From a virus, in IMG/VR virus record IMGVR_UViG_3300050120_000230, positions 150,325-214,324 of that record: a DNA stretch of 64,000 nt; one strand, 5' to 3'. This document shows positions 9,015-36,175 of the stretch, in pieces. The notes beneath the pieces were generated by a model. That model did no database searches. It saw only the letters and a program-made list of their open reading frames with translations, and was not told where the DNA came from. Position numbers and translations under genes: made by a program. Numbering within the stretch: the stretch's first letter is position 1; every line of letters begins with the position of its first letter.

Positions 9015-9094
9015 ATTAGATAACTTGGGATACCACCGGTTGCAAATCAGGATATATACGTAATACTTACGTATTTCCGGGGGCTATCACGACA

Positions 9095-9364
9095 ATGACT
9101 ACTCCATCTACGATCAACGGCGCCACTGTGACTATTGTCAGGATTGGCAAATCTCTCGTTTCCTTGCAGTCACAAAATCTCGTCACACAACCCGCAAGCG
9201 CCGGGCAGATGTCCTTCCAGATCAATTGCGATTCGAAGCTGCTGATCGCGAACTCGAAGATCACGATTTTCTCTTCGACGTTCGGTGCGAAGATCGACAA
9301 CGTCACCGTCCTCGCCGATCATTTCGGCGCGGGTAGTCACCAGATCACTGGCCACGTCATCTGA
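9095..9364 (+). CDS. small hypothetical protein
   Basis: 89-aa ORF between tRNA genes; weak RBS. Confidence 0.3.
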   Translation: MTTPSTINGATVTIVRIGKSLVSLQSQNLVTQPASAGQMSFQINCDSKLLIANSKITIFSSTFGAKIDNVTVLADHFGAGSHQITGHVI

Positions 9365-9368
9365 ATTG

Positions 9369-9458
9369 AGAATCAGGTGGGACTCGAACCCACGGGGACA
9401 AGCTTCGCTTGTTACGGGGGTAAAAACCCCGCCCTCTCGCCGCTGAGGTGACTGATCC
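9369..9458 (-). tRNA. atypical long tRNA-like gene (90 nt, long variable hairpin ACAAGC-GAA-GCTTGT, anticodon loop TTTTTAC reading TTT); identity uncertain
   Basis: acceptor GGATCAG/CTGATTC, T-arm GTGGG-TTCGAGT-CCCAC, anticodon stem CGGGG/CCCCG; three nt between acceptor and D stem. Confidence 0.45.
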
Positions 9459-9498
9459 ATTTATTGAACATTCGTAGAGATATCAATACTATTGGTTA

Positions 9499-10092
9499 AT
9501 GTTTTGTGAATTTTGTTCTGACTTGATTTCTTCTCGATATGGTTCTGGTCGTTTTTGTTCTTCCAAAAGTGCCAGAGGTTTCAGCACCAAAGCTAGGCGC
9601 GCAGAGATCAATTCCAAGGTCAGCAAGAAATTATCGAATAGACCGTCTGGTCGAACGCTCGATTGCGTGACCATTTCTTTTCTGGCTGACAAACGACGTG
9701 AAAAACTCATGGAACTGCCATGGGAATCAATTGGCCTATACGCCAAAAAATCTCGCGTTCTGGGTGAACAAAATCACCGGTGCAATGGATGCAACCTTGA
9801 TGAATGGCGGGGCCAGCCGTTGGTTTTGGAAATCGAACATAAAGATGGCAATAACCAAAACAACGCCCGAGAAAATCTCGAAGGCTTGTGTCCGAATTGC
9901 CATAGCCAAACGCCAACATGGCGTGGTCGTAACAAGGGTCGATCTAAATCAATCTCAGATCAAGAATTCATCGAACATCTGCAAGCTGCTAGCAGCATTC
10001 ATCGCGCGCTGTTGAGCTTAGGTCTCTCAGCGAAGGGAACGAATTATAACCGTGCGAGAACTCTCATCCAATCACATGGCATTTCTATGTGA
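9499..10092 (+). CDS. HNH endonuclease
   Basis: HNH signature ...CNGCNLDEW...EIEHKDGNNQNNARENLEGLCPNCH; stop abuts tRNA-Lys. Confidence 0.65.
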   Translation: MFCEFCSDLISSRYGSGRFCSSKSARGFSTKARRAEINSKVSKKLSNRPSGRTLDCVTISFLADKRREKLMELPWESIGLYAKKSRVLGEQNHRCNGCNLDEWRGQPLVLEIEHKDGNNQNNARENLEGLCPNCHSQTPTWRGRNKGRSKSISDQEFIEHLQAASSIHRALLSLGLSAKGTNYNRARTLIQSHGISM

Positions 10093-10168
10093 TGGTGAAC
10101 CCCCTCGGATTTGAACCGAGAATCTCCTCCTTAAAAGGGAGTTGCATTAACCGTTATGCTAGGGGTCC
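10093..10168 (-). tRNA. tRNA-Lys (anticodon TTT)
   Basis: GGACCCC acceptor, D GCAT/ATGC, loop CTTTTAA, T-arm CTCGG-TTCAAAT-CCGAG, CCA encoded. Confidence 0.75.
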
Positions 10169-10354
10169 GTTAGAAAGTAGCATTCAGAGGTGAATTCATC
10201 TCGGGATATTCTGTCGCGAGAACAGACCCTTCATATGTTCCCCAGCCAACGAAAGCCAGAACTAAAGCAATGATTGTGGTGCCGAGCGCGATTTTGAATG
10301 TCTTTTGCATAGCAACAATTTATCTCTCTGAGATGTTGCGATGCAATATATTTG

Positions 10355-10438
10355 AGGGCGCGGTGGGACTCGAACCCACGGTGTGCTTACGCAAAAAGAT
10401 TAAGAGTCTTCCCCCTTCGCCGCTCGGGACACGCGCCC
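10355..10438 (-). tRNA. atypical class-II-like tRNA (84 nt; Tyr/Ser-like D-loop GAGCGGCGAA, 15-nt variable arm) whose anticodon loop reads CTCTTAA (CTT); identity uncertain
   Basis: acceptor GGGCGCG/CGCGCCC, T-arm GTGGG-TTCGAGT-CCCAC; anticodon stem AAGA/TCTT. Confidence 0.45.
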
Positions 10439-10442
10439 ATGT

Positions 10443-10517
10443 TGGTGGATCGGGAGAGATTCGAACTCTCGACCTTGGGCTTAAGAGGCCCCTGCACTAC
10501 CGCTGTGCTACCAATCC
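10443..10517 (-). tRNA. tRNA-Lys (anticodon CTT)
   Basis: GGATTGG acceptor, loop CTCTTAA, T-arm GAGAG-TTCGAAT-CTCTC, CCA encoded. Confidence 0.7.
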
Positions 10518-10521
10518 ATTG

Positions 10522-10609
10522 TAGTCCTGCTTGGATTCGAACCAAGATCACGCCCCGATCTGGGACTACGGATTATAAATCCGACGCTCTGCCGTTGAGC
10601 TACAGGACC
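10522..10609 (-). tRNA. atypical long tRNA (88 nt, about 21-nt variable region) with anticodon loop TTTATAA (TAT); Ile-UAU-like or other, uncertain
   Basis: GGTCCTG acceptor, D GCTC-AACGGCA-GAGC, T-arm CTTGG-TTCGAAT-CCAAG. Confidence 0.45.
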
Positions 10610-10667
10610 AAAGGGTCTGCTGTAGCAGCGATATTCGTTTACTCATTTGGTCCTCCTCTTTTTGCTG

Positions 10668-10751
10668 TGCGCTCGGCTGGGCTCGAACCAGCAAGACCTT
10701 CCGGCCGCTCCGTTTTAAGTGGAGTGTGGCTACCAGTTTCACCACGAGCGC
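10668..10751 (-). tRNA. tRNA-Leu (anticodon TAA)
   Basis: class II: 3-bp D stem, loop CTTAAAA, 15-nt variable arm, T-arm GCTGG-TTCGAGC-CCAGC. Confidence 0.7.
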
Positions 10752-10756
10752 ATGAT

Positions 10757-10838
10757 TGGTGCCCCTCCTCGGATTCGAACCGAGATGCTTTCGCGCCAGA
10801 TTTTGAATCTGGTGTGTCTACCGTTCCACCAGAGGGGC
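10757..10838 (-). tRNA. tRNA-Leu (anticodon CAA)
   Basis: loop TTCAAAA, stem CCAGA/TCTGG, 11-nt variable arm (GCGAAAGC), CCA encoded. Confidence 0.75.
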
Positions 10839-10881
10839 ATAGAAACCTGAAGATCACATGGCGTGAACCTCAAGTCCATAT

Positions 10882-10963
10882 TGGTGCGGATGGAGGGAAT
10901 CGAACCCCCACGCTTTCGCAACAGATTCTAAATCTGCCGTGGCTACCGTTACACCACATCCGC
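10882..10963 (-). tRNA. tRNA-Leu (anticodon TAG)
   Basis: loop TTTAGAA, variable TGCGAAAGCGT, T-arm GGGGG-TTCGATT-CCCTC, CCA. Confidence 0.75.
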
Positions 10964-10971
10964 ATTGTAGT

Positions 10972-11058
10972 TGGTGCGAATAGCAGGACTCGAACCTGCA
11001 CGGCCTTTCGGCCACTGACTTCTGAAGCCAGCGCGTCTACCTATTCCGCCATACTCGC
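10972..11058 (-). tRNA. tRNA-Leu (anticodon CAG)
   Basis: D GCGG-AATAGGTAGA-CGCG as in bacterial Leu, loop TTCAGAA, 15-nt variable arm, CCA. Confidence 0.8.
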
Positions 11059-11066
11059 ATTGTATT

Positions 11067-11148
11067 TGGTGCCCAGAACAGGACTCGAACCTGCACGCCG
11101 AAGCAACATCCTCTCAGAATGCCGTGTCTACCGTTTCACCATCTGGGC
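11067..11148 (-). tRNA. tRNA-Leu (anticodon GAG)
   Basis: loop CTGAGAG, variable TGCTTCGGCGT, CCA. Confidence 0.75.
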
Positions 11149-11156
11149 ATTGTAGT

Positions 11157-11232
11157 TGGCACAACCGACTGGGCTCGAACCAGTGGCCTCATCCTTCGGA
11201 GGGATGCGCTCTTCCAACTGAGCTACGGCTGT
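11157..11232 (-). tRNA. tRNA-Arg (anticodon CCG)
   Basis: loop CTCCGAA, stem CATCC/GGATG, A1-U72, CCA. Confidence 0.7.
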
Positions 11233-11244
11233 AAATGATGTGCT

Positions 11245-11321
11245 TGGCAGAGACGACAGGGATCGAACCTGTGACCTCCTGATTCGTAGTCAGGCGCTCG
11301 TTCCGGCTGAGCTACGCCTCT
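11245..11321 (-). tRNA. tRNA-Arg (anticodon ACG)
   Basis: loop CTACGAA, stem CCTGA/TCAGG, T-arm ACAGG-TTCGATC-CCTGT, CCA. Confidence 0.75.
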
Positions 11322-11346
11322 GCAAAGCACATCATCGAAGTGTGTT

Positions 11347-11422
11347 TGGCTGGAACGGAGGGGATCGAACCCACGACCTTCAATTCCGCAAACTGACGCT
11401 CTTCCAACTGAGCTACGTCCCA
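11347..11422 (-). tRNA. tRNA-Arg (anticodon GCG)
   Basis: loop TTGCGGA, stem TCAGT/ATTGA, CCA; T-stem has one U-U mismatch. Confidence 0.65.
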
Positions 11423-16567: not shown

Positions 16568-16642
16568 AGTCTCTTAGCTCAGCGGTAGAGCAGCGTCTTG
16601 ATAAGGCGAAGGTCACTGGTTCAATCCCAGTAGGGACTACCA
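16568..16642 (+). tRNA. tRNA-Ile (anticodon GAT)
   Basis: loop TTGATAA, T-arm ACTGG-TTCAATC-CCAGT, CCA; A1-U72. Confidence 0.75.
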
Positions 16643-16657
16643 AATCGCAGGACTTAC

Positions 16658-16732
16658 GGGCGAATAACTCAGCGGTAGAGTGCCTCTTTCACACGGAGGA
16701 AGCCGGGGGTTCGATCCCCTCTTCGCCCACCA
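16658..16732 (+). tRNA. tRNA-Val (anticodon CAC)
   Basis: GGGCGAA acceptor, loop TTCACAC, T-arm GGGGG-TTCGATC-CCCTC, CCA. Confidence 0.7.
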
Positions 16733-16836
16733 CTACTCGATGAGTGACGTAGCTCATCAAGGTCTTTGACATCGTTGATAGCGTGAAATAACGGCCGCTC
16801 CCGTGATCGGGGGCGGCCGACTAAGAAGAGTTTTGC

Positions 16837-16909
16837 TGAGGATTAGTTCAGTTGGTAGAACGCCACACTCTGAATGTGGATGTCCGAGGTTCGAGTCCTT
16901 GATCCTCAG
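16837..16909 (+). tRNA. tRNA-Gln (anticodon CTG)
   Basis: U1-A72 acceptor TGAGGAT/ATCCTCA, D GTTC/GAAC, loop CTCTGAA; no CCA encoded; flanked by inverted repeat gaagagttttgc/gcaaaactcttc. Confidence 0.7.
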
Positions 16910-16966
16910 CAAAACTCTTCTAGTTTTTTCACAAGCGTCCGTCGCAAGACGGCGCCTGTGAACTAA

Positions 16967-17051
16967 TGGGGAATGGTGTAATGGTAACATCCCTGACTTT
17001 GAATCAGGAGACGAGGAGTTTATGTAGGTTCGAGCCCTACTTCCCCAGCCA
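16967..17051 (+). tRNA. tRNA-Gln (anticodon TTG) with unusually long (15-nt) variable region
   Basis: TGGGGAA/TTCCCCA acceptor, loop CTTTGAA, T-arm GTAGG-TTCGAGC-CCTAC, CCA; variable AGACGAGGAGTTTAT. Confidence 0.55.
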
Positions 17052-17073
17052 TATTTTACGCGATGTGTTTTGG

Positions 17074-17151
17074 TGCGGGATGGTAGCAGTCTGGTAGCTC
17101 GTTAGCCTCATAAGCTAAAGGTCAGCGGTTCAAATCCGCTTCCCGCACCCA
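17074..17151 (+). tRNA. tRNA-Met (anticodon CAT; elongator-type or Ile2-lysidine)
   Basis: fMet-like body (AGTCTGGTA D-loop, CTCATAA loop, T-arm AGCGG-TTCAAAT-CCGCT) but U1-A72 paired; CCA encoded. Confidence 0.7.
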
Positions 17152-17171
17152 AACACATCGCGAACCTTTGA

Positions 17172-17249
17172 CGCGGGAAGGACAAGACAGTTAGTCACTA
17201 GCCTCATAAGCTAGACATCTGGCAGATGCGAGCACTGCTCCCGCACCCA
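17172..17249 (+). pseudogene. degenerate duplicate of the tRNA-Met gene (tRNA pseudogene)
   Basis: shares the TAGC-CTCATAA-GCTA anticodon arm and TCCCGCACCCAAAC 3-prime end with the upstream tRNA-Met but lacks D and T arms; C1xA72 mismatch. Confidence 0.5.
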
Positions 17250-17324
17250 AACTTGGCACGGTGATGAACCGGTAAGTCCACAGAGTTATTGACTTGGTGC
17301 TACGAAAATCCGTAGCTGCAAGGT

Positions 17325-17657
17325 ATGAATGATCCACCCAAATTCGTCCGAGCCAGCCGCGAATATCGAGAGCATCTCATCGCTTTCGTTCAGCGGGCAG
17401 TTTGGGCGAGAGGACAGCCGGGTTTCGAGTTCGATGTGATGGGACGAACGTTCCTGATCGCGACCGAGACTGACTACCTTCCGGGTTGGTCAGCCCGGCC
17501 TCTAACTCAACCGGACTTGATCTTCTTCAAAATGTTGTCGCGAGAACGCGATGACAACCACTGGGGCGCCTATTGGCGTCGCGGCAAGGGGATGAAGGTT
17601 TACGGAAACAGCACCGTATTCGAGCGGGACATGCTTTTCCTCAAGTTCGCAGAATAA
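17325..17657 (+). CDS. paralog-family protein (two copies of the motif: DLIFFKMLS and ERDMLFLKFAE)
   Basis: 110-aa ORF between tRNA arrays; family motif at C-terminus. Confidence 0.5.
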   Translation: MNDPPKFVRASREYREHLIAFVQRAVWARGQPGFEFDVMGRTFLIATETDYLPGWSARPLTQPDLIFFKMLSRERDDNHWGAYWRRGKGMKVYGNSTVFERDMLFLKFAE

Positions 17658-17822
17658 GCGAAATATCGTACAACACGAAAAGCGATAAATCGTGCAAGGA
17701 ATCATCGGGATCAGCGTCGGCAGTTCCTCCCCTCGGGGTGTGAAAACGGACCCCCGGTGACTTAGGCTAGAGGGTTGTAGGTGACCTGTATTTGACTGGG
17801 AACCTTCGTCCATGTGTTTTGT

Positions 17823-17899
17823 CAGGGTGTAGCTCAGTCTGGTAGAGTGGCGTCCTCGGATGGCGAGGGTCGCAGGTTCAAATCCTGCCACCCTGACCA
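17823..17899 (+). tRNA. tRNA-Pro (anticodon CGG)
   Basis: C1-G72 acceptor CAGGGTG/CACCCTG typical of Pro, loop CTCGGAT, CCA; flanked by inverted repeat catgtgtttt/aaacacatg. Confidence 0.7.
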
Positions 17900-18071
17900 A
17901 ACACATGGTTCACCAAATGGATGTGCTTTCCGAGAGGCATGTTGTGCATCGTCAAGAACAATCACCGTCCGTAGAGGGACGCCCGAGCGGGTTGCGGAGA
18001 TTGTAGGAGACGATGTGCCAAGCGCGCGAACGGCTGCAAATCGGCATGTCTCGCGGTAAGCACATCCATGA

Positions 18072-18147
18072 TGGATAGTAGCTCAGTTGGTAGAGCTTTC
18101 GGTTGTTACCCGAATGGTCGCAGGTTCGAGCCCTGCCTATCCAGCCA
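18072..18147 (+). tRNA. tRNA-Asn (anticodon GTT)
   Basis: loop TTGTTAC, stem TTCGG/CCGAA, T-arm GCAGG-TTCGAGC-CCTGC, CCA. Confidence 0.7.
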
Positions 18148-18166
18148 AAATGACCTTCGGGTCTGA

Positions 18167-18241
18167 TTGGACGTAGCACAATGGTAGTGCAACTCCCTGT
18201 TAAGGAGAAGGTTGTAGGTTCGAGTCCTACCGTCCGAGCCA
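18167..18241 (+). tRNA. tRNA-Asn (anticodon GTT), second copy
   Basis: loop CTGTTAA, D GCAC/GTGC, T-arm GTAGG-TTCGAGT-CCTAC, CCA. Confidence 0.65.
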
Positions 18242-18331
18242 TTTCTGGGTGGGCTGCAACCCCCAACTTCATCCATCGGGTGAAGAGGTGAGACGCACAA
18301 AGCGCGTCTCTGACAAAGCGCAGCACATCAT

Positions 18332-18407
18332 GGGGCCATAGCTCAGTTGGTAGAGCGATTCCTCGGCAGGGAATAGGTCGCCGGTTCGACTCCGGCTGGC
18401 TCCACCA
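18332..18407 (+). tRNA. tRNA-Ala (anticodon GGC)
   Basis: G3-U70 identity pair (GGGGCCA/TGGCTCC), loop TCGGCAG (C at position 33), CCA. Confidence 0.7.
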
Positions 18408-18605
18408 TTAAAGAAAGCCCCGCTGTTTCCAGCGAGGCTCCCTAGACCGAATCCACCACCGCACCGAAGCGCGGACATCAAAGGTGGACATCGTCACAAG
18501 GGATGTCAAGACCCGCTGTCCAAGGCTTGGACGGCACTCGCTGTCCAAGGCTTGGACAGCACTCCGCACGGTGATGAGCCGATAAGTCGGCAGATTTTGC
18601 CCACC

Positions 18606-18640
18606 AAAAAAGGCCCCGGCGAACCGGGGCCTTGATGGCA
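18606..18640 (-). terminator. rho-independent terminator for the minus-strand gene ending at 18661
   Basis: ggccccggcgaaccggggcc hairpin followed (minus strand) by TTTTTT. Confidence 0.6.
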
Positions 18641-18660
18641 CTGCACCGAAGTGCGGATGC

Positions 18661-18858
18661 TTAGGCGGTTTCGGCGTCCGAGCGGGTCGCGTATTCGGCC
18701 TTCAGGGATTCGAGGATCGACTGCTTGGCGGTGGCGTCGGTGACCGACGTTTCGCCGAGTTCGCGTTCGACCTTGGAAATGGCGTTCTTGATGTGCGGGG
18801 TTGCCATCTTCGACACCGGGGTTTCCGTGGTGCCGGACTTCCAGACTGCTTCAGCCAC
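18661..18858 (-). CDS. small hypothetical protein (65 aa)
   Basis: GTG start with AAGGAGG 7 nt upstream; terminator immediately downstream. Confidence 0.55.
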   Translation of the reverse strand: MAEAVWKSGTTETPVSKMATPHIKNAISKVERELGETSVTDATAKQSILESLKAEYATRSDAETA

Positions 18859-18980
18859 AAGGGCCTCCTTGGTAGGTGGGTGGGAGTGCTAACCGGTTTG
18901 GTTAACGAAAACCATATATCCACCCCTGCGGCGTCATGTCAACAGCACAAAATCGTGCACTGCTCGTTGAGGGAAAACAC

Positions 18981-19054
18981 GGGGTAATAGCTCAATGGTC
19001 GAGCACCGGCTTCGCAAGTCGGGGATCAGGGTTCGATTCCCTGTTACTCCACCA
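18981..19054 (+). tRNA. tRNA-Ala (anticodon CGC)
   Basis: G3-U70 (GGGGTAA/TTACTCC), loop TTCGCAA, T-arm CAGGG-TTCGATT-CCCTG, CCA. Confidence 0.7.
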
Positions 19055-19079
19055 AACATAAATAGTTTCAACTACATAT

Positions 19080-19155
19080 GCTGTCTTAGCTCAGTTGGTA
19101 GAGCGCCGTATTGGTAATGCGGAGGTGGTGGGTTCGATCCCCGCAGTCAGCACCA
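19080..19155 (+). tRNA. tRNA-Thr (anticodon GGT)
   Basis: loop TTGGTAA, stem CCGTA/TGCGG, CCA; one acceptor mismatch. Confidence 0.65.
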
Positions 19156-19158
19156 TTT

Positions 19159-19235
19159 CAGGGTATAGCGCAGCATGGTAGCGCGTCACGTCGGGAACGT
19201 GAAGGTCGCAGGTTCAAATCCTGCTATCCTGACCA
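19159..19235 (+). tRNA. tRNA-Pro (anticodon GGG)
   Basis: C1-G72 acceptor CAGGGTA/TATCCTG, loop TCGGGAA (C33), T-arm GCAGG-TTCAAAT-CCTGC, CCA. Confidence 0.65.
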
Positions 19236-19241
19236 ATTAGG

Positions 19242-19547
19242 TCAATCCATACAGAACGGATTGGCGATGTTCGTCAGCGGCACAGTGTCCAAGATGATCG
19301 GGTTTTTGAAGAACTCGGACGTAAATTGATGCGAACCATTCGGGTTCATATATCGACGAGTTGCGGCCGTTTGGGCTCCCTTGACGGTTTTGAATACGCC
19401 GCTGAACCACATGATTTTATCAGCATCGCGTGGTGAGGTAACGCCGTACTGCCAAACGGTCATACCTTTCGGGTGTTCGATCCCTCTGGCATAGAACTTC
19501 TGCTCAATGGGAGCGTCATTCTCCGTGATGATTTCTCTCATACGCAT
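19242..19547 (-). CDS. hypothetical protein
   Basis: ORF 19242..19658 trimmed to an internal Met because its 5-prime end would overlap tRNA-Pro(TGG). Confidence 0.35.
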   Translation of the reverse strand: MRMREIITENDAPIEQKFYARGIEHPKGMTVWQYGVTSPRDADKIMWFSGVFKTVKGAQTAATRRYMNPNGSHQFTSEFFKNPIILDTVPLTNIANPFCMD

Positions 19548-19580
19548 ATGAATATTTAGGCCGCATGGCCAAACAGACAT

Positions 19581-19657
19581 CGGGGTGTAGCTCAGCTTGA
19601 TAGAGCATCCGGTTTGGGACCGGAGGGTCGGAGGTTTGAGTCCTCTCGCCCCGACCA
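19581..19657 (+). tRNA. tRNA-Pro (anticodon TGG)
   Basis: C1-G72 acceptor CGGGGTG/CGCCCCG, loop TTTGGGA, T-loop TTTGAGT, CCA. Confidence 0.7.
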
Positions 19658-19686
19658 ATTCAGAGACCTTCCCAAAGGGTCTCTAC

Positions 19687-19763
19687 GGTAATGTAGCTCA
19701 GTCAGGTAGAGCAGCGGGCTCATAACTCGCGTGTCGCTGGTTCGATCCCAGCCATTACCACCA
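19687..19763 (+). tRNA. tRNA-Met or tRNA-Ile2 (anticodon CAT)
   Basis: GGTAATG/CATTACC acceptor, loop CTCATAA, T-arm GCTGG-TTCGATC-CCAGC, CCA. Confidence 0.7.
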
Positions 19764-19764
19764 C

Positions 19765-19839
19765 GGACGATTAACTCAGCGGTAGAGTGCCTCTATGACA
19801 TGGAGGAAGCCACTGGTTCGATCCCAGTATCGTCCACCA
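19765..19839 (+). tRNA. tRNA-Val (anticodon GAC)
   Basis: one nt after the preceding tRNA; loop ATGACAT, T-arm ACTGG-TTCGATC-CCAGT, CCA. Confidence 0.7.
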
Positions 19840-19901
19840 ATTTACTTGACGAAACGCCCGTCCATGAGATCATATGTTGATCTTGCAAAGGGAGGGCATC
19901 C

Positions 19902-20177
19902 ATGACGACTGTGAAACTCTCCGAAGCGGAACACAACGCTCTCTCACTTCTGGTTCGCTCGGGCGGCTCGATCCTCACGTCGGCCATTCCCGATAAGAAC
20001 GAGAAGGACGTGTTTGACAACGTCGAGGCAGGCATCAAGGTCTACGTGAAACTTGAGACCCGTGGTCTGGTTGTCGTGACCGAGGAAGAGCCGTTCGAAC
20101 TTGAAGACGGCACCGAGTTCCAGTTCACGAACGAAGTCTACATCACCGACGAAGGTCGGCACGCTATCAACCGCTAA
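19902..20177 (+). CDS. hypothetical protein (91 aa)
   Basis: strong RBS AAGGGAGGG; acidic, protein-like composition. Confidence 0.55.
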   Translation: MTTVKLSEAEHNALSLLVRSGGSILTSAIPDKNEKDVFDNVEAGIKVYVKLETRGLVVVTEEEPFELEDGTEFQFTNEVYITDEGRHAINR

Positions 20178-20240
20178 CAGGCCACATATGGCCTATTAGG
20201 CGCCGGAAACGGTTCTAATAGGCCAACTATGGCCTCTTAT

Positions 20241-20315
20241 GCTTGGGTAGCTCAGGGGTAGAGCAGTGGGCTGAAAATCCGCGTGTCGTTGGTTCGATTC
20301 CAACTCCAAGCACCA
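20241..20315 (+). tRNA. tRNA-Phe (anticodon GAA)
   Basis: loop CTGAAAA, D GCTC-AGGGGTA-GAGC, T-arm GTTGG-TTCGATT-CCAAC, CCA. Confidence 0.75.
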
Positions 20316-20485
20316 TTTTGGTTATTTTGACCGCAAGGTAGATCATACCGCCCGGCCAAAGCAAACCGCCCCACAAAACTTGGCACAGAAATGTGCACAA
20401 GTCGAAGTGGTTGGATTTGATCTCTATGACCTGAAGAAGGCCCCAGAAGATCAATCCAATCAAAGAGTAAACAATCCATGGGCTC

Positions 20486-21616
20486 ATGCCCATATTTAGA
20501 GAGGAACGGTCCCTTGGAGTTTCACGGCTAAGCCCAGAGCGCCTTAATCGGTATCTGGCACTGCAAGATTTGACCGACGCATCGTCGGGCGAACACGCAA
20601 TCAACCTCGTGCTGGACAAGCTGGTAACGGCAATTGAGCAATGGTCGGGCCTCAAGGCAGACATCGTTCGGTCCACTCCTATCGTTTCCGTTCGGGACAA
20701 CTACGACCGGCTCTACTATGAGCCGGACGCGGTCGCACGCTCTGCGCGCTATTCCCACTACGTTGACGATGAGCACATTCTTCGCACCCACACGACGGCG
20801 GCCATTCCCGGCCTGCTGACGGAGACCACGGCCGACCGGCTGATGGTTCTACCGGGTCTTGTCTATCGCCGCGATGTGATGGATCGGATGCATGTGGGAG
20901 AACCGCACCAAGTCGATCTCTGGGTCGCTAGGCGGTCAAGGCTCCGTCGTGATGATCTGTTGAAGATGATCGGCGCGGTTCTCAACGCGATCCTGCCCGG
21001 CTGCGAATACCGCTGCAACGAGACAATCCATCCATACACAGTAAATGGCTTGGAGGTCGAGGTTCGTGTGGACGACCGGTGGATAGAGGTGCTCGAATGT
21101 GGGGAAATCCATCCGTGGCTTTTGAACGACAACGGCTTGCCTAGTCAGGAGTGGTCGGGCTTGGCGATGGGGCTGGGCCTAGACCGCCTTGTAATGCTCC
21201 TGAAGGGCATGGACGACATTCGGCTGCTTCGCAGCACGGATGCTCGTATTGCCCGCCAGATGGCTTCCCTGAGCCCCTACGAGGCTGTTTCGAACCAACC
21301 TATGACCAAGCGGGATATGTCGCTCACGGTGAGTGATCCTGACATCGAATTGATCGGAGATCGCATCCGGGTGGCGCTCGGTGATCGGGCTGACTGGTTG
21401 GAAGAGATCGTGGTCGTTTCGGCATCGAGTTGGGATGAAGTCCCGGCCGTGGCGAGGGAGCGTCTTGGGATGGCGCCTGAGCACACGAACCTGTTGCTGC
21501 GGCTCATCATGCGCTCACCGTCCGAGAGCATTCCGAAAGAGATCGCCAACGAAATCTACGACATAGTCTATGGCGAGCTTCACGAAGGATCGGCGGGGTA
21601 TCAGCGTGTATCATAA
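20486..21616 (+). CDS. pheS: phenylalanyl-tRNA synthetase alpha-subunit (PheS)-like class II aaRS catalytic core
   Basis: motif 2 VLPGLVYRRDVMDRMHVGEPHQVDLWV (cf. [27 protein letters not shown]) and motif 3 SGLAMGLGLDRLVMLLKGMDDIRLL (cf. [25 protein letters not shown]); ILRTHTTAAIPGLL matches LLRTQTSGVQIRTM; lies directly after tRNA-Phe. Confidence 0.75.
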   Translation: MPIFREERSLGVSRLSPERLNRYLALQDLTDASSGEHAINLVLDKLVTAIEQWSGLKADIVRSTPIVSVRDNYDRLYYEPDAVARSARYSHYVDDEHILRTHTTAAIPGLLTETTADRLMVLPGLVYRRDVMDRMHVGEPHQVDLWVARRSRLRRDDLLKMIGAVLNAILPGCEYRCNETIHPYTVNGLEVEVRVDDRWIEVLECGEIHPWLLNDNGLPSQEWSGLAMGLGLDRLVMLLKGMDDIRLLRSTDARIARQMASLSPYEAVSNQPMTKRDMSLTVSDPDIELIGDRIRVALGDRADWLEEIVVVSASSWDEVPAVARERLGMAPEHTNLLLRLIMRSPSESIPKEIANEIYDIVYGELHEGSAGYQRVS

Positions 21617-21766
21617 ACAAGACGGGAAGGCCCTTAATGCATCGTTTATGATGCACTACGGTCGATTTCACAGTCTAGTGCATCAGTTTTGATGCATTAC
21701 GCAATTCGCCAAAAATGACGAGTTATGAACAAAAATAGCCCTAACTCGTCAAAATTGGCGAATTAT

Positions 21767-21841
21767 GTCGATGTAGCTTAGTGGCTAAAGCATCCGGTTG
21801 AAACCCGGAGATCGGCGGTTCGAACCCGCCCATCGGCACCA
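21767..21841 (+). tRNA. tRNA-Phe (anticodon GAA), second copy
   Basis: loop TTGAAAC, stem TCCGG/CCGGA, T-arm GGCGG-TTCGAAC-CCGCC, CCA. Confidence 0.65.
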
Positions 21842-27248: not shown

Positions 27249-27709
27249 GCCGGGACCAGTGCTTCAACGAGTTCACCGATGTGTCGAGCTTCATACGACG
27301 CGCACCGACACCGCGCCGCTCGCTCGCGGTCGTCCTGTTGCTCATACAATTCGACGCGAGCGCGTTGGGCGTGCATCCGTTCCTTCGCGAGATCGACGAT
27401 GATTGTCTTCAATTCGGCCGCCGTTTTGGCGCTGATCTTGGAGATCAATTCGACGATGGCGTCCGCCTCCAACGCGGCGCTCCATTCGGTCTCATAGGAG
27501 AACGTGCGGCCCTTGGCGAGGTATCGCAGGGCCTCAACCTCGCTCACGCGTTTTCGCTCGTTGGCGATGCCTAGGGCGGCCTCTTTGAGCCGTCGCATGT
27601 TCAAGGGTCGGCTGGTCGCCATCCGCGTGTTAGGGCCTCTGGTTATGCTGCCGCGTGGTGTATTGCTCGACCAGTTCGGCGACCATCGCATACAGAATGG
27701 GGTCACCAT
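27245..27709 (-). CDS. hypothetical protein
   Basis: 154-aa ORF, helical charged composition. Confidence 0.45.
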   Translation of the reverse strand: MVTPFCMRWSPNWSSNTPRGSITRGPNTRMATSRPLNMRRLKEAALGIANERKRVSEVEALRYLAKGRTFSYETEWSAALEADAIVELISKISAKTAAELKTIIVDLAKERMHAQRARVELYEQQDDRERAARCRCASYEARHIGELVEALVPA

Positions 27710-28316
27710 CCTTCAGCGCGGGCAGCAGATCGGCCTTCTCGCTCATCCACTTCCGAGCGAAGCCCGGATCATGTTCAATGATCGAGGGCGCGTTGGACAG
27801 GATGTCGGCCAGCTTGTCCGTTTTCACGTCGGCGTCTTGTTCGGCGGTGTGGACCAGATCGAGCGCCTTGCGTTCGGCACGATTGCCATCCCACGGCATA
27901 CTCACGTCGGTCAGACCAGACGTGATCCGTCGAACTTCCAGACCGAACCTGTGCCCATCCACCAAGCCGCCGAATTCTTCGATCAGGTCCAACGTGATAC
28001 CCTCGACCAGAATCAGTTTGGCTCCACTCTTCAGGAATTTCGCGGTATCTTTGACCCGAGTGCCGTGTTCGTCGGTGAAGTAGCGAGTATCTTCAACCAA
28101 ATCGTGGAACATCATCGCCACTTGCTGGGCGACAGTGATCTTCGACCCGCGTGGCAGCCATTGCAGGATCGCGACGCACTCAGCCGGGTGAACGATGTAG
28201 GGCTCGCCAGAATATTTCCGCATCTGACCCACCGCAGCGTGACCCGCCATAGCGAAGAAGTAAGCCTTCTCCACACGGTGGTCGCTCAGACTAGGGGTTT
28301 GGTTCCATTGGGTCAT
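27630..28316 (-). CDS. HD-domain phosphohydrolase
   Basis: HD motif region ...YIVHPAECVAIL...MMFHDLVEDT... Confidence 0.55.
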   Translation of the reverse strand: MTQWNQTPSLSDHRVEKAYFFAMAGHAAVGQMRKYSGEPYIVHPAECVAILQWLPRGSKITVAQQVAMMFHDLVEDTRYFTDEHGTRVKDTAKFLKSGAKLILVEGITLDLIEEFGGLVDGHRFGLEVRRITSGLTDVSMPWDGNRAERKALDLVHTAEQDADVKTDKLADILSNAPSIIEHDPGFARKWMSEKADLLPALKDGDPILYAMVAELVEQYTTRQHNQRP

Positions 28317-30763: not shown

Positions 30764-31089
30764 TCAGGGCACTCGCCCACGTCGAAGCGGGTTACGCCGT
30801 GAAAGCATCGCCAGAATTGACCGCTCGTGACCATGGTCCTGAACGGTGGTTCGTAGAAATTGCGTGGCCGCCCTTCGAACTCGATCTCGCGCATCACGAT
30901 GGTGCTGCATCGATTGACTTCGGCCGCCAGTTTGTGCGGTGTTGCCATGAAGACGGGCATGTCGCCCTCGTCGTCCCAACCACAAAAATAATGACCGGTT
31001 TTGCCACCCATCGTGCAGTTGCAGCGTTCGAGATCATCGCCCTCTGGCATGATCCCCGTCGCGGAGAGGAACATCGTCGCGGTAATCAC
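30736..31089 (-). CDS. hypothetical Cys-rich protein
   Basis: 117-aa ORF with CNC...C and GECPECKKEW motifs. Confidence 0.4.
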   Translation of the reverse strand: MITATMFLSATGIMPEGDDLERCNCTMGGKTGHYFCGWDDEGDMPVFMATPHKLAAEVNRCSTIVMREIEFEGRPRNFYEPPFRTMVTSGQFWRCFHGVTRFDVGECPECKKEWDAK

Positions 31090-31550
31090 AGGGCTTCCAG
31101 CGCAGCCTTGGCTTCGGAGATAGCGAGGTGCATGTCTTCGATATCTTGGAAAGACATCTGAGCGGCGCCATTGAGAGCTACGTGCACGTTGATCCCGGCG
31201 GTCGAGTCCCGAGCGGCGTAACGGTCGATCTCGTCTTGCGTCATCGGATATCGAAAATCTGCGGGAGTTTTTCCTCCGTAGGTTTTCGATATGGCGAGGT
31301 AGTGCTTGTAGTTGTAGCCTTTGCCCAAATTGACGATGATCGTCATCTGAGCGCCCGCTGTGCTCTTTCGAATCTCGACTTGCGGAAACCCGAGTTTCAC
31401 GCCGGTGAGTTTCGCCTTCCAGCGTTCCTCGTCATTCTTCGACATATTGGGAACGAAGCCACCCACGGGTCCACCATCAAACCCGTGAGCGTCTTTCCAT
31501 TCCTGAGTGGACTGCACCTTCTGCGGCTTGTCCCACATCAGGATGCCCAT
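31086..31550 (-). CDS. hypothetical protein
   Basis: 154-aa ORF. Confidence 0.45.
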   Translation of the reverse strand: MGILMWDKPQKVQSTQEWKDAHGFDGGPVGGFVPNMSKNDEERWKAKLTGVKLGFPQVEIRKSTAGAQMTIIVNLGKGYNYKHYLAISKTYGGKTPADFRYPMTQDEIDRYAARDSTAGINVHVALNGAAQMSFQDIEDMHLAISEAKAALEAL

Positions 31551-32395
31551 CAGTGTTTCCCCGTCGCGATGACGGCGGCAACCGGTTGTTCGGAATCCAC
31601 CACCGTGACGTTGGCCGTGCCGTTCTCGGCCGCCTTGGCGACCGCTTGGGCGCGCATGACCTTGGTGTAGTCGGTGACCGACCGATCCGAAGGAGCCTTC
31701 GTGCGAGCCGCATCCGCCTGCGCTTGCAGGGATGCGGTGACCAACTTCTCATTGGCATCCGCGATCTTTTCGGTGGGATACATGCCGCGCAATTGGACGA
31801 GACCGTAGCGAACGATTTTGTCCGACTGATCGCCAAAACCCTGAGCCTGATAGTAGGCAATGGTCTTCGCTTGAATGCGGTTCGTGATGGCTTTTTCGAC
31901 CGCGTCACGATCTCGGATCGAACCGTCCTTGAAGCCAAACCCAGCCATAGCGTCACGCACGGCAGAACGGACGATGGTGATCTCGCGGTCGGTGTAAGGT
32001 CCCGGCAGCCGAGACTTCACGTTCGTCAAATTACGCGGGTCGATGGCCCAACTGACGCTCACCGGCACTTCGATGCTGACGCCGTCGTTGGTGACAGACG
32101 TGATCGAAGTGTAGTCGGGATCGGCATTGGCGCCATCGGTCATGAAGTTCAGATCGCTGAACTCCATGGTGACTTTGTCGGCATGAGACAGCGGGACCAC
32201 GTAGTGGAGGCCGGGACCAATAATGTTCGGCTGAACGACACCGAATCGAGTGGTGAACGCCACCTCATGGCTCTTCACCGTCACCCACTGACCGGGGCCA
32301 ATCAGAGTAAGGAACGAAACGATGGCGATGATCCAGATTGCGATCACGCCAGCCTTACGCATCGCCTTGTAGGAGATGACAAATTCTTGGTCCAC
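31550..32395 (-). CDS. SPFH / band-7 (HflK/HflC/stomatin-like) membrane protein
   Basis: N-terminal TM helix followed by VKSHEVAFTTRFGVV...PGLHYVVP... SPFH-type core and Ala/Gln-rich coiled-coil tail. Confidence 0.65.
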   Translation of the reverse strand: MDQEFVISYKAMRKAGVIAIWIIAIVSFLTLIGPGQWVTVKSHEVAFTTRFGVVQPNIIGPGLHYVVPLSHADKVTMEFSDLNFMTDGANADPDYTSITSVTNDGVSIEVPVSVSWAIDPRNLTNVKSRLPGPYTDREITIVRSAVRDAMAGFGFKDGSIRDRDAVEKAITNRIQAKTIAYYQAQGFGDQSDKIVRYGLVQLRGMYPTEKIADANEKLVTASLQAQADAARTKAPSDRSVTDYTKVMRAQAVAKAAENGTANVTVVDSEQPVAAVIATGKH

Positions 32396-32445
32396 GGGTA
32401 GCCCCCAAAAGAGTGCCCTCGCCGAAGCGAGGGCTGACCGGTGCC

Positions 32446-33162
32446 TTACTTACGGACGCCGACGAATTGCAGCAGGAATTGGAACAGGTTGATGAAATCG
32501 AGGTAGAGGTTGAACGCTGACAGGTTGGCTCGAACGACCATATCGCCGCCATTCGCGTAATCGCTCTTCAGGCGTTGCGTATCGTAGGCGATGAAGCCTG
32601 AGAAAATCAGCACGCCGATGGCCGAGACGATGAAGTGCATACCGGGGATGAAGATCGAAGCGATCATCGCGACGATCAGCCCGAAGAGAGCCGCGAACAG
32701 GAATCCACCAATGGGTCCAAGATCGCGCTTCGTTGTGTAGCCCCACAGGCTCAACGCACCGAACATCGCCGACGTTATGACGAACGTCGAAGCCAGCGAC
32801 ATACCGGTGTAGATTTGGAACAACACGCCGCTGCTGATGCCGAACATCACGGAAGACGCGTAGAACAGGAAGGCGCTTCCCCCGCGTGTGGCCGTGTTCT
32901 TCAGCAGCCATCCCATGACGAGGATCAGCACGATGGGGCCGAAGCAGACGGCCATCCCGAGGATCGTGTAATCGATCTTGCCGTTAGGCAGCGTGTGGAA
33001 AAAGGCGTTGCCGAATGCGGTGTTGCCGGTCAACCACGCAAGGGCGGCCGTAATCAGCAATCCCACCGCAAGGCGATTGTAGACGCTGATGAGAAAGGCG
33101 CGAAGCCCGATGTCGTAGTCGGCGTCAGTGCGAACGCCGGAAACAGTTTGATCCAAGTCCAT
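32446..33162 (-). CDS. Bax-inhibitor-1 / YccA-family 7-TM protein
   Basis: seven hydrophobic helices; overall architecture and ...FIAYDTQRLK... region typical of BI-1/YccA. Confidence 0.65.
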   Translation of the reverse strand: MDLDQTVSGVRTDADYDIGLRAFLISVYNRLAVGLLITAALAWLTGNTAFGNAFFHTLPNGKIDYTILGMAVCFGPIVLILVMGWLLKNTATRGGSAFLFYASSVMFGISSGVLFQIYTGMSLASTFVITSAMFGALSLWGYTTKRDLGPIGGFLFAALFGLIVAMIASIFIPGMHFIVSAIGVLIFSGFIAYDTQRLKSDYANGGDMVVRANLSAFNLYLDFINLFQFLLQFVGVRK

Positions 33163-33171
33163 AGATTCCTC

Positions 33172-33456
33172 CTAGTTCCACCAGCCGAACCACAAACCCC
33201 AACCATCAATCGAGCCAAGCGGCGCGAGGAAGGCGAGGACGAACAGACGAATCCATTCGTGGTGCTGGAAGCAGTATACTAAGTGGTGAACATAGCCCAC
33301 GAGTGCGAGAATCCAAATAACAATCCACGCGATGCCCATTCCGGCAATGATACGCATCATGGTTTTTTCCTCAGCGGATTTTTTGAGTTCAGGAGACTGA
33401 ACGGGTTCAGCATGTTGCGTTCGCTCACCAGCTTTCCCTTTCCAGCAAAATTTCAA
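33172..33456 (-). CDS. small membrane protein
   Basis: 94-aa ORF with two TM helices and C-terminal WGLWFGWWN. Confidence 0.4.
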   Translation of the reverse strand: MKFCWKGKAGERTQHAEPVQSPELKKSAEEKTMMRIIAGMGIAWIVIWILALVGYVHHLVYCFQHHEWIRLFVLAFLAPLGSIDGWGLWFGWWN

Positions 33457-33877: not shown

Positions 33878-34099
33878 TCACAGACGGCCCTCGCGACGAT
33901 CAATGCTGCGTTGTTCTTCGACGGTCACGCAAACGAACTCCCGCTTGCTTGCATAGCCACACGAGCGAGACATGCAGAACCACACGTCCTTTTGTTTCTC
34001 GACATCAATCGAGCCGCATTCCGGGCAGGAATACCGGGCGGTCAGCTTACCATCGGTATAGACCTTGCCGTAGATGAGTGTGACTTCGGGCGCTTCCAT
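33878..34099 (-). CDS. zinc-ribbon protein
   Basis: CPECG...C...SRSCGYAS Cys4 arrangement. Confidence 0.4.
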   Translation of the reverse strand: MEAPEVTLIYGKVYTDGKLTARYSCPECGSIDVEKQKDVWFCMSRSCGYASKREFVCVTVEEQRSIDRREGRL

Positions 34100-34425
34100 C
34101 AGCAGTCACCGAGGTTGTCATCGGCGGTGAGCCACCCCTGCCGCCACCAACCCCGTTCGCCATCGCGATGATAGGGGTTGCGATCAAGGGCCACCGTCCC
34201 GGTCACTCGGGCTGCGAAGCCCTCGTCGCGGATACGTTGGACGATGCCGGGCTCGTTGCGAATGATGTTGGCGACGTAGCCGAGCAGCGGATCATGCGGC
34301 ATCGGTTCGGCGCCACGTTCCACCAGTTGGGCACTCATGCGACCTTCGGGATCGCCGCCCTCATTGCGCTTCATGACACGAAGACCTTCACGCGCCGTAG
34401 CGATGTCGTTTTCGACCCAACTCAT
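34099..34425 (-). CDS. hypothetical protein
   Basis: 108-aa ORF. Confidence 0.4.
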   Translation of the reverse strand: MSWVENDIATAREGLRVMKRNEGGDPEGRMSAQLVERGAEPMPHDPLLGYVANIIRNEPGIVQRIRDEGFAARVTGTVALDRNPYHRDGERGWWRQGWLTADDNLGDC

Positions 34426-34907: not shown

Positions 34908-35486
34908 TCAATAGCCCTCCAACATGCCCGAGAACTTCAGGGCTTGGCCCATGGCGGAAACGCCGTAGACATCTTCGTATTCGCGAATGCGCGCGTCGAG
35001 ATCGTCTTCCTCGGCGGCCCACTTGGAGATGTCGGGGTCAAACCGGTCGCCGTCCACTTCATCTTCCTCGTCGTCGAGGAAGTCTTCCAGCGGCGGCACG
35101 TTGTCCATGAACGCCTTCATCGTGGCGTAGGAATATTCGCGCGGGCGGACGTTGTAGCGATCCTTGTAGAGATCGCTGTAGCTGTCGGCCATCCACGGAT
35201 CGACCAGATGGCCGGGGGCCTCGGCGCCGTAGGCGGCCAGTAGGGCGGGTTGAAGAACGGTCTTGTATTCGGCGGTGCGAGCAGTTTGCTCAGCATCCGA
35301 GCACCGAAAAAAGCCTTCGGTCAGTTCGGAGATGCGGTCCACAACGATGGAAAGTTCGTTCATCTTGCCCATGAAAGTATCTCCTGTGCCGTTGGCGTTT
35401 CGCCATTGATTAGAGTTTCGCACGGATATGAATCTGGTCAACCAAAATAAATTGACTTGGAGACCTCTCCTAACGCCTTCTGACAC
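34908..35486 (-). CDS. hypothetical acidic protein
   Basis: 192-aa ORF. Confidence 0.45.
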   Translation of the reverse strand: MSEGVRRGLQVNLFWLTRFISVRNSNQWRNANGTGDTFMGKMNELSIVVDRISELTEGFFRCSDAEQTARTAEYKTVLQPALLAAYGAEAPGHLVDPWMADSYSDLYKDRYNVRPREYSYATMKAFMDNVPPLEDFLDDEEDEVDGDRFDPDISKWAAEEDDLDARIREYEDVYGVSAMGQALKFSGMLEGY

Positions 35487-35488
35487 TC

Positions 35489-36175
35489 ATGTTCGTCGAA
35501 GACATCATCAACGATCTGGCTCACCGGATTGCCGCAGCAGATAAGGACCCCGTTGGGGCCGCTCTGCGCGAGGACCCGTGGACGCAAAAGTTCGTGGAAA
35601 GCCTGCAAGGCTCGGTGAAGTCTGGACGTGCTCTTTCGACAGAGCAAGGCCGAGTTTTCTTGAACGTGTTGCGGCGCCTGAAGCGCCAGTGCGGTGGCCC
35701 GGTAAGCGGCATGTCTGCCGAACTGCTCGATCAGTTTCTATTGGCGCCTCGCTTTCGAAACCCACCGTATCAATCCACGCCGGTGAAGAAAGAGGTTCGC
35801 TACCTCGGGGACAATAAGCTGGGATTTCGTTGCAAACGATCCGATGAGATCATGCACGACATCAAAGCCATGTCTAATCGTGGCCGCGATAGCACTTGGA
35901 AAGAACAACACCGCCCATACTTCAATCGGCAGCACAAGTTGTGGGTGATCTCCATCACCGCTGACACCTACCAAAGCGTGGTCAAACTGATCGGCAGTCA
36001 TGGCTTCGACGCTGACGACGCGGTGATCGAATATCTCGCATTGGCAGACAGCAGTCGAGGCCAAGCCAGCACCTTTGTTCTCGATGATACGACGGGCTCC
36101 ATTGTCGTCAACATCTGTGACAATCCTGTGCTCGAAAGCTGGGTCAAGCGCGTGATCTTTGGGGAAATCCTGTGA
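35489..36175 (+). CDS. hypothetical protein
   Basis: 228-aa ORF, first of a long plus-strand coupled gene block. Confidence 0.5.
   Translation: MFVEDIINDLAHRIAAADKDPVGAALREDPWTQKFVESLQGSVKSGRALSTEQGRVFLNVLRRLKRQCGGPVSGMSAELLDQFLLAPRFRNPPYQSTPVKKEVRYLGDNKLGFRCKRSDEIMHDIKAMSNRGRDSTWKEQHRPYFNRQHKLWVISITADTYQSVVKLIGSHGFDADDAVIEYLALADSSRGQASTFVLDDTTGSIVVNICDNPVLESWVKRVIFGEIL

Follow-up and report, generated by a model that had tools for sequence, protein, structure and literature searches.

Here, we describe two adjacent genes for membrane proteins in a 64,000-nucleotide stretch of viral DNA, hereafter referred to as the window, which corresponds to positions 150,325 to 214,324 of the IMG/VR record IMGVR_UViG_3300050120_000230. 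One gene codes for a protein of the BI-1/TMBIM family and the other for a divergent protein of the SPFH (Band-7) family; the two proteins will be referred to as BI-1 and SPFH, respectively. The source is an uncultivated huge phage of about 415 kb, kin of the Atu_ph07, Phosso and Rak2-like jumbo phages, and its host is probably an alphaproteobacterium. Seven distinct related loci carry both genes, which are adjacent in five of these. The pairing is specific to this phage lineage, and large phages recurrently carry BI-1 alone as an accessory gene. Members of both families have links to proteases of the FtsH type, in bacteria as well as mitochondria, and a tentative reading, which we rank first by analogy with these systems, is that BI-1 and SPFH may modulate FtsH-centred protein quality control in the inner membrane. 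As it stands, two well-known families are found in a new genomic setting, and the mechanism is a proposal only.

The BI-1 and SPFH genes

The BI-1 and SPFH genes belong to a block of small co-directional accessory genes. Three co-directional open reading frames (ORFs) on the minus strand encode, in the order of transcription, a small protein with two transmembrane (TM) helices, BI-1 and SPFH (Table 1). The first-pass annotation of this DNA had placed the BI-1 and SPFH genes side by side, followed by the gene of the small 2-TM protein. All three ORFs were confirmed at their coordinates on the minus strand, as were the two hydrophobic helices of the small protein, but its gene precedes BI-1 in transcription rather than following it.

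Table 1 Features of the window, with positions counted from its first nucleotide.
Feature	Position	Strand	Basis
tRNA array 1	8941-11422	-	tRNA gene prediction
tRNA array 2	16568-21841	+	tRNA gene prediction
PheRS-alpha-like gene	20486-21616		Pfam tRNA-synt_2d, E=1.2e-34
Conserved soluble protein, 154 amino acids (aa)	31086..31550	-	ATG overlaps SPFH stop codon (TGATG)
Divergent SPFH/Band-7 membrane protein, 281 aa	31550..32395	-	Pfam Band_7, phrog_200
GC-rich 8-bp hairpin with TTCG tetraloop, then ACTCTTTTGG	32415..32434	-	50-nt gap between BI-1 and SPFH; terminator-like site
BI-1/TMBIM-family inner-membrane protein, 238 aa	32446..33162	-	Pfam Bax1-I
Small 2-TM protein, 62 aa from Met33	33172..33360	-	phrog_7319, homologue lengths, GAGGA ribosome-binding site

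BI-1 is preceded by a ribosome-binding site, AGGAGG, located 9 nt past the stop codon of the small gene. The protein matches the Pfam profile PF01027 (Bax1-I) with E=2.7e-48 and 165 bits (cutoff 34.1) over model positions 1-206 of 207, which bears out the family label of the first-pass annotation. The AlphaFold2 model, with a predicted local distance difference test score (pLDDT) of 85.2 and a predicted template modelling score (pTM) of 0.83, has seven long helices that consist of residues 3-47, 67-86, 93-117, 120-143, 149-168, 175-203 and 208-234. BI-1 aligns to YetJ of Bacillus subtilis (BsYetJ) with E=1.6e-8, and the motifs YD and LYLDFINLF are kept. Both aspartates of the C-terminal di-aspartyl motif, which is the pH sensor of BsYetJ, are present and are aligned to those of YetJ. 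The first, D194 in AYDTQ, is invariant across an alignment of 19 sequences; the second, in LYLDF, is kept by the window protein; P0009 and some of the bacterial homologues have Asn instead. When the fold was compared with a viral structure library, the only significant named matches were the BI-1 proteins of giant eukaryotic viruses and the US12 family of betaherpesviruses, with TM-scores of 0.6-0.72. No PHROGs family matches BI-1.

BI-1 has thousands of bacterial relatives. Nine close relatives share 56-81% identity with it and are located on contigs of up to 570 kb, and the next level of similarity is found at about 50% identity, where the named proteins are those of Phenylobacterium and other Caulobacteraceae annotated as 'Bax inhibitor-1/YccA family'. 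In a neighbour-joining tree, nine phage copies of BI-1 are monophyletic in 492 of 500 bootstraps, and the divergent copy of locus L013 (related loci are denoted by L and a number) joins this phage clade in 294 of 500 (59%). The simplest reading of these sequences is that BI-1 was captured once from a Caulobacterales-like host and then diverged fast. Alternatively, given a bootstrap value of only 59%, the L013 copy may represent a second capture into the same slot.

SPFH matches PF01145 (Band_7) with E=1.7e-15 and 58 bits (cutoff 23.6) over model positions 2-173 of 176, and phrog_200 with E=8e-14; its membership in the SPFH family, as had been predicted, is thus upheld by the Pfam profile. The gene starts with a GTG at position 32395, which aligns with the ATG of L001 and has a GGGGG ribosome-binding site ahead of it. 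The AlphaFold2 model (pLDDT 74.8, and 80-94 in the core) comprises, from the N-terminus, a TM helix, the SPFH domain, a pair of long helices and a region of strands at the C-terminus. A Foldseek search of the PDB returned, at a probability of 1.0, HflK/C (7vhq) with E=7.6e-12 and, close behind, prohibitin, stomatin, erlin and QmcA. The alignments are full-length (225-270 columns), with TM-scores of about 0.5-0.6 and identities of 14-18% for all of these partners. SPFH is a genuine SPFH protein with the architecture of the cage-forming type; its oligomerisation is a prediction only. None of the neighbouring ORFs has a Pfam match to NfeD, the partner family in operons of the QmcA-YbbJ type.

In contrast to the abundance of BI-1 relatives, a word-indexed search of 5.8 billion proteins yielded only 8 relatives of SPFH. 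When 1.84 billion cluster representatives were searched exhaustively by profile, there were 742 matches at E<=1e-3, of which only 15 had E<=1e-30. There was no significant match by tblastn in 50,697 deposited phage records, and a scan of IMG/VR with the SPFH alignment, in which the search patterns were strict, found no relatives. The scarcity of relatives marks SPFH as an old, divergent and lineage-restricted phage family. In L015, the SPFH gene (6726-7594) was called as two ORFs of 97 and 197 aa; the break falls at ambiguous bases (XXXX in the translation) and is therefore probably an assembly artefact rather than a sign of a pseudogene.

Both genes are under purifying selection. The ratio of non-synonymous to synonymous substitution rates (dN/dS), calculated against relatives, is about 0.19-0.32 for BI-1 and about 0.16-0.24 for SPFH; these values are approximate, as dS is near saturation. 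No match to the PADLOC defence models was obtained at E<=0.01 for the small protein, BI-1 or SPFH, and membership in a defence or anti-defence system was rejected on this ground.

Conservation of the pair in related phages

The first-pass annotation had proposed that a phage with this pair could tune FtsH-dependent proteolysis or membrane integrity. The pair is conserved in related phages. BI-1 is directly followed by SPFH in the window, L004/L005, L001/L002 (a 570 kb contig), L013 and L015. Both genes are also present in L003 (a 288 kb contig) and L007, where SPFH is located 2-2.4 kb downstream of BI-1 with 5-6 genes between them. The genes that come after SPFH in the window sit between the pair in L003 and L007, which indicates a local rearrangement. 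Across the co-occurring pairs, SPFH has diverged to 47% identity and BI-1 to 43%.

Each gene is also found without the other. SPFH occurs without BI-1 in L010 (39% identity, in the same helicase block), in L011/L012 (33%, beside a class I aminoacyl-tRNA synthetase) and in L016 (43%, near a tail sheath gene). Conversely, L006 has BI-1 (75% identity) but no SPFH; the gene is located beside a B-family DNA polymerase, and nothing else is common to L006 and the window. In IMG/VR, relatives of BI-1 at 35-46% identity were detected on at least 128 viral contigs, and several of these contigs exceed 400 kb. On L017 (516,805 bp), L018 (561,116 bp) and L023 (435,856 bp), BI-1 is all that is shared with the window, and its neighbours are phage-like: an HNH endonuclease, ART-PolyVal (L018), T5orf172, an aminoacyl-tRNA synthetase (L023) and a radical SAM enzyme.

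The BI-1 homologue of Phenylobacterium immobile has no SPFH neighbour, and the pairing therefore arose in the phage lineage. Capture of the pair as a cassette from a host was considered and rejected, because the Phenylobacterium homologue stands without SPFH and because SPFH has almost no relatives of bacterial type.

The N-terminal tail of BI-1

In all 11 phage copies of BI-1, 11-16 residues stand ahead of a conserved DxGLR motif, compared with 19-22 residues in 109 of the 111 nearest bacterial homologues. The phage copies lack MSD(F/Y)N(R/G), the N-terminal motif that is strongly conserved in the host proteins. In four loci the BI-1 ORF could not be extended, as there is no upstream start codon. 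YccA11, in which eight N-terminal residues are missing, is described as keeping its binding to FtsH/HflKC and as not degradable (PMC7876416). FtsH reportedly requires an N-terminal tail of about 20 residues (PMC4914591, which cites Chiba 2000). The LR motif is located at positions 21-22 in wild-type YccA of E. coli, which is degraded by FtsH, and at positions 20-21 in BI-1 of the window; the tail of the latter, of about 20 residues, equals that of wild-type YccA. In most BI-1 proteins of other viral contigs, the tail is 10-14 residues long and similar in its sequence pattern. A YccA11-like truncation, which would make BI-1 a non-degradable inhibitor of FtsH, was therefore rejected as evidence, since the tail of wild-type YccA is equally long and those of other viral BI-1 proteins are equally short. 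The latter point suggests that the short tail is possibly ancestral and that the extension in Caulobacterales is derived.

The hairpin between BI-1 and SPFH

The sequence of the hairpin that lies in the gap between BI-1 and SPFH looks like that of a terminator, an attenuator or an RNA-stability element. Perfect tetraloop hairpins with a stem of at least 7 bp are found only twice in the 64 kb, and this is one of them; its folding z-score is -2.19. An equivalent hairpin is found right past the BI-1 stop codon in all syntenic relatives (L004/L005, L001, L003, L007 and L015), and the stems differ by compensatory U-A to C-G changes. The hairpin of L003, a locus in which SPFH is not the next gene, has the full T-run that is typical of an intrinsic terminator. 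BI-1, alone or together with the small gene, therefore behaves as a unit that has a 3' element of its own. Transcriptional read-through is common in phages. The other perfect GC-rich TTCG hairpin of the window, at 18610-18633 on the minus strand, has a 10-bp stem followed by TTTT and is located within the plus-strand tRNA array.

A possible action on FtsH and its alternatives

Several observations on members of the two families bear on a possible function. YccA can be cross-linked to FtsH and HflKC and modulates the degradation of SecY, which is blocked by its mutant YccA11 (Kihara 1998, as summarised in PMC7876416). In Brucella, an alphaproteobacterium, deletion of BI-1 raises the levels of the HflK/C proteins (PMC7876416). 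TMBIM5 is an inhibitor of the m-AAA protease AFG3L2, to which it binds (PMC9379554), HflK/C encloses FtsH (PMC12048511), and CIII of phage lambda is a precedent for the inhibition of FtsH by a phage (PMC1838920). By analogy, the phage BI-1 would occupy the host FtsH, or FtsH-HflKC, as a competing pseudo-substrate, as YccA does with FtsH and TMBIM5 with the m-AAA protease. The phage SPFH would assemble an enclosure like that of HflK/C or prohibitin, which would limit the access of substrates to FtsH. SecY, phage membrane proteins or both would be stabilised, and the cell would stay viable through a long infection. In this scheme the main effector would probably be BI-1, since it also recurs alone in other huge phages, and SPFH would at most act as a partner specific to this lineage.

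Modulation of FtsH is the sole hypothesis that accounts for a captured BI-1 beside SPFH. In its favour, the assignment of both proteins to their families is secure, and structures of HflK/C rank among the best fold matches of SPFH. BI-1 was inserted beside a pre-existing SPFH gene, or within 2.4 kb of it, and both have been kept in one block; with about 600 genes in the genome, a rough estimate puts the probability that the two are neighbours by chance at about 0.3%. The RMF-like and HD_4-like neighbours found in the related loci, which are described below, look like modulators of host physiology, and we count them in favour of an action on FtsH. The further proposal that a clade of huge phages of Alphaproteobacteria assembled a YccA/HflKC-like module of its own, from a captured BI-1 and an old SPFH, that controls the host FtsH appears to us unlikely.

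A number of results weigh against an action of the pair on FtsH. The first-pass annotation had likened the two proteins to YccA and HflK/C, and these narrower labels do not hold. BI-1 is not an orthologue of YccA, as it scores 33.2 bits with the NCBIfam equivalog model NF007765 (curated cutoff 353) and BLASTP finds 34% identity to YccA across only 109 C-terminal residues. SPFH has no match to the NCBIfam models of HflK and HflC, its fold is nearly equally close to HflK/C, prohibitin, stomatin and erlin, and no second SPFH gene is found in the 64-kb window or in any of the related loci. Its membrane orientation is ambiguous: in 10 close family members, the flanks of the TM helix hold 26 Lys and Arg residues on the N-terminal side and 16 on the C-terminal side, which is only a mild bias towards an N-in topology, the one that places the SPFH domain of HflK/HflC in the periplasm. 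The short tail of BI-1 failed its controls and is not counted as evidence for the FtsH model. The 3' element of BI-1 weakens the case for an obligatory co-expression with SPFH, and the block may be a hotspot for the insertion of accessory genes, which would raise the odds of chance adjacency. The two genes are separable, with SPFH alone in three loci and BI-1 alone in L006. When 80 fetched IMG/VR loci with BI-1 were screened with a broad SPFH profile that found every positive control, none (0/80) had an SPFH gene within 6 kb of BI-1. Furthermore, the steps that involve FtsH, ion flux and oligomerisation are all extrapolated from knowledge of the families.

Part of this evidence would fit an activity of BI-1 alone, as a pH-gated cation (Ca2+/H+) leak channel or a cytoprotective TMBIM protein, with SPFH unrelated to it and having a scaffolding role of its own. 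Membrane and ion homeostasis would then be buffered for a long infection, as is thought for the BI-1 proteins of eukaryotic viruses. We consider this explanation possible, if on the unlikely side. It is in keeping with the alignment of BI-1 to BsYetJ, a crystallised bacterial BI-1 protein of Ca2+ homeostasis (Chang 2014, as cited in PMC7876416), with the presence of both aspartates, with the fold matches to giant-virus BI-1 and the US12 family, with the hairpin that closes the BI-1 unit ahead of SPFH, and with the recurrence of BI-1 without SPFH in L006 and in all 80 IMG/VR loci, which include phage-like contigs of 436-561 kb. However, it leaves the arrival and the retention of BI-1 beside SPFH in this clade unexplained, a Ca2+ leak has no known part in phage infection, and the second aspartate is not kept in all homologues. 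Ion transport and inhibition of a protease are also compatible activities, as TMBIM5 does both (PMC9379554). It is less probable, and in our opinion doubtful, that BI-1 and SPFH are independent accessory genes with separate membrane roles, such as superinfection exclusion, lysis timing or the scaffolding of sites of phage assembly or replication, and that they stand together only because both lie in a variable insertion region. The separate histories of the two, seen in the numbers of their relatives, would agree with this, as would the rearrangement of the block in L003 and L007 and the patchy presence of the small 2-TM gene. SPFH proteins are widespread in phages, including the Rak2-like jumbo phages, with a function that is unknown, and they have been seen by mass spectrometry in the virions of Erwinia jumbo phages (PMC7760394, PMC6034870); overexpression of a Band-7-like protein of a mycobacteriophage is toxic (PMC13148394). 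Yet both genes are retained in the seven loci, down to protein identities of 43-47%, and it would be a coincidence that both families have a known partner protease in common.

A bacterial origin of the window, as a chromosomal island or a mis-binned contig with ordinary host housekeeping genes, is effectively refuted. The identity of about 50% between BI-1 and Caulobacteraceae proteins could be taken to point to such an origin, as could the location of one relative on a contig of an NCBI metagenome-assembled genome. Against this stand 31 tRNA genes in arrays, a collagen-like tail fibre, a virion-structural PHROG, a helicase 60% identical to that of Phosso, a majority of ORFs without a Pfam match, a relative with a phage tail-sheath gene beside SPFH, and a true bacterial BI-1 locus that is entirely different.

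Comparison with known systems

BI-1 belongs to the same Pfam family as YccA and YetJ, at full-length coverage, and has seven helices like them; its C-terminal YD and LYLDF align with those of YetJ. It differs from YccA in being encoded by a phage and in its low similarity, as given above. Unlike YccA and YetJ, its nearest kin are the alphaproteobacterial BI-1 proteins, which are known by the deletion phenotype of Brucella BrBI only (PMC7876416). SPFH shares with HflK/HflC and other cage-forming SPFH proteins the N-terminal TM helix, the SPFH domain, the long helices and the C-terminal strand. However, it is the product of a single gene and not a member of a heteromeric pair, and it shows no preference for HflK/C at 14-18% identity. 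It also differs from the SPFH-NfeD operons of the QmcA-YbbJ type, as it has no NfeD partner in the neighbouring ORFs.

Other phage-encoded SPFH/Band-7 membrane proteins, such as those of phrog_200, of Rak2-like jumbo phages and of Rhizobium phage Pasto and the 'band-7-like membrane protein' of actinophages, also have one TM helix and an SPFH domain. SPFH of the window differs from them in having no significant match in the 50,697 phage genomes and in being paired with BI-1. Phage-borne SPFH/Band-7 proteins have no known function (PMC7760394, PMC13148394). Among eukaryotic viruses, giant viruses and betaherpesviruses (US12) likewise carry a host-derived membrane protein of the BI-1 family, and vGAAP of poxviruses is also among these viral BI-1/TMBIM homologues. 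In contrast to these, the host of the window phage is bacterial, with no apoptosis or ER pathway, and the BI-1 sequence is of bacterial type. Lambda CIII is a phage protein that competes for FtsH as both inhibitor and substrate (PMC1838920). Any likeness would be a functional analogy only, as CIII, a small amphipathic peptide, resembles BI-1 and SPFH neither in sequence nor in fold.

Phage SPFH proteins and the BI-1 proteins of eukaryotic viruses were thus already known, and the clade-specific arrangement of the two genes is new. No description was found in the literature of a phage-encoded BI-1 protein, or of BI-1 as a recurrent accessory gene of huge phages.

Neighbouring genes

The gene of the small 2-TM protein was listed as a 94-aa ORF with a TTG start (33172-33456). 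The homologues of this protein are 61-65 aa long, the ATG at 33360, which corresponds to Met33 of the listed ORF, has a GAGGA ribosome-binding site ahead of it, and phrog_7319, a family of unknown function, matches residues 40-93 only (E=5e-6). From these sizes, the ribosome-binding site and the span of the match, the product most likely has 62 aa. Its conserved motif is HHxVYCFQ...WIRL...LAPLG...DGWGLWFGWW(N/D). Homologues are located directly upstream of BI-1 in L004/L005 (76% identity), L007 (60%) and L013 (41%), and the gene is missing from L001, L003, L006 and L015. The small protein has only 2 word-indexed matches among the 5.8 billion proteins.

The 154-aa protein, encoded downstream of SPFH, has no Pfam or PHROG match. 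Its homologues, at 49-65% identity, are found in L001-L005, L007 and L010, the last of which lacks BI-1, and in L003 and L007 the gene comes after BI-1 and not after SPFH. It is part of the same conserved block without a specific tie to SPFH.

Small proteins that match the Pfam family RMF (ribosome modulation factor) are encoded just upstream of BI-1 in L001 (5312-5542), L004 (5564-5782) and L015 (5759-5962). In the window, a 108-aa ORF at 34099-34425 on the minus strand has a weak likeness to the RMF-like protein of L015 (tblastn E=1.4e-5), with the motif NPY...W..GW in common, and has no Pfam match at E<=0.05. A 228-aa protein encoded at 27630-28316 (minus strand) has a weak match to HD_4, of the RelA/SpoT-type HD hydrolases, with E=4.5e-4, which is under the curated cutoff. 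L001 and L015 have conserved counterparts of this protein, which, judging from the HD_4 match, may be a phage alarmone hydrolase.

The minus-strand block that contains BI-1 and SPFH diverges from a plus-strand helicase block at 35486-35489, with almost no intergenic space between the ORFs as called. This layout is kept in L001, L004, L007 and L015, which suggests divergent promoters; a scan for sigma-70 promoters gave nothing above chance.

The phage genome

Proteins identical to BI-1 and SPFH are on record from a 415,409-bp JGI contig. Sinorhizobium phage Phosso (469 kb) has a helicase with 59.6% identity to the one encoded in the adjoining plus-strand block; for the helicases of Agrobacterium phage Atu_ph07 (490 kb) and Pseudomonas phage PA5oct, the identity is about 52%. 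The neighbourhood of the Phosso helicase has no synteny with the window, and megablast found no similarity at the DNA level to deposited phage genomes. The gene of a tail fibre with collagen repeats and the match to a virion-structural PHROG are both located within the window, in which the majority of ORFs have no family match in Pfam.

The 31 tRNA genes of the window form two arrays on opposite strands (Table 1). Some of them are oversized for their type, namely tRNA-Lys(ttt) with 91 nt (9368-9458), tRNA-Ile(tat) with 89 nt (10521-10609), and tRNA-Lys(ctt) and tRNA-Gln(ttg) with 85 nt each, which may be due to introns or to misprediction. The PheRS-alpha-like gene is sandwiched by two copies of its cognate tRNA, tRNA-Phe(GAA), at 20241-20315 and 21767-21841.

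Significance

Very large phages probably have long infection cycles. If BI-1 and SPFH act on FtsH or on the ion homeostasis of the membrane, they would show how such phages keep the envelope of the host working. Both proteins are small and clonable, which offers a clear experimental route. If the action on FtsH is true, BI-1 would be the first phage-encoded protease modulator of the TMBIM type, and the pair would be a parallel, in a bacterial virus, to the control of mitochondrial m-AAA proteases by TMBIM5 and prohibitin. Either action, on FtsH or on ion homeostasis, would also tie phage biology to the conserved relationship that BI-1 and SPFH proteins have with the AAA proteases of bacteria and mitochondria. 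In a broader view, huge phages would recurrently carry BI-1 as a 'keep the host alive' gene, in parallel with the BI-1 homologues of giant eukaryotic viruses.

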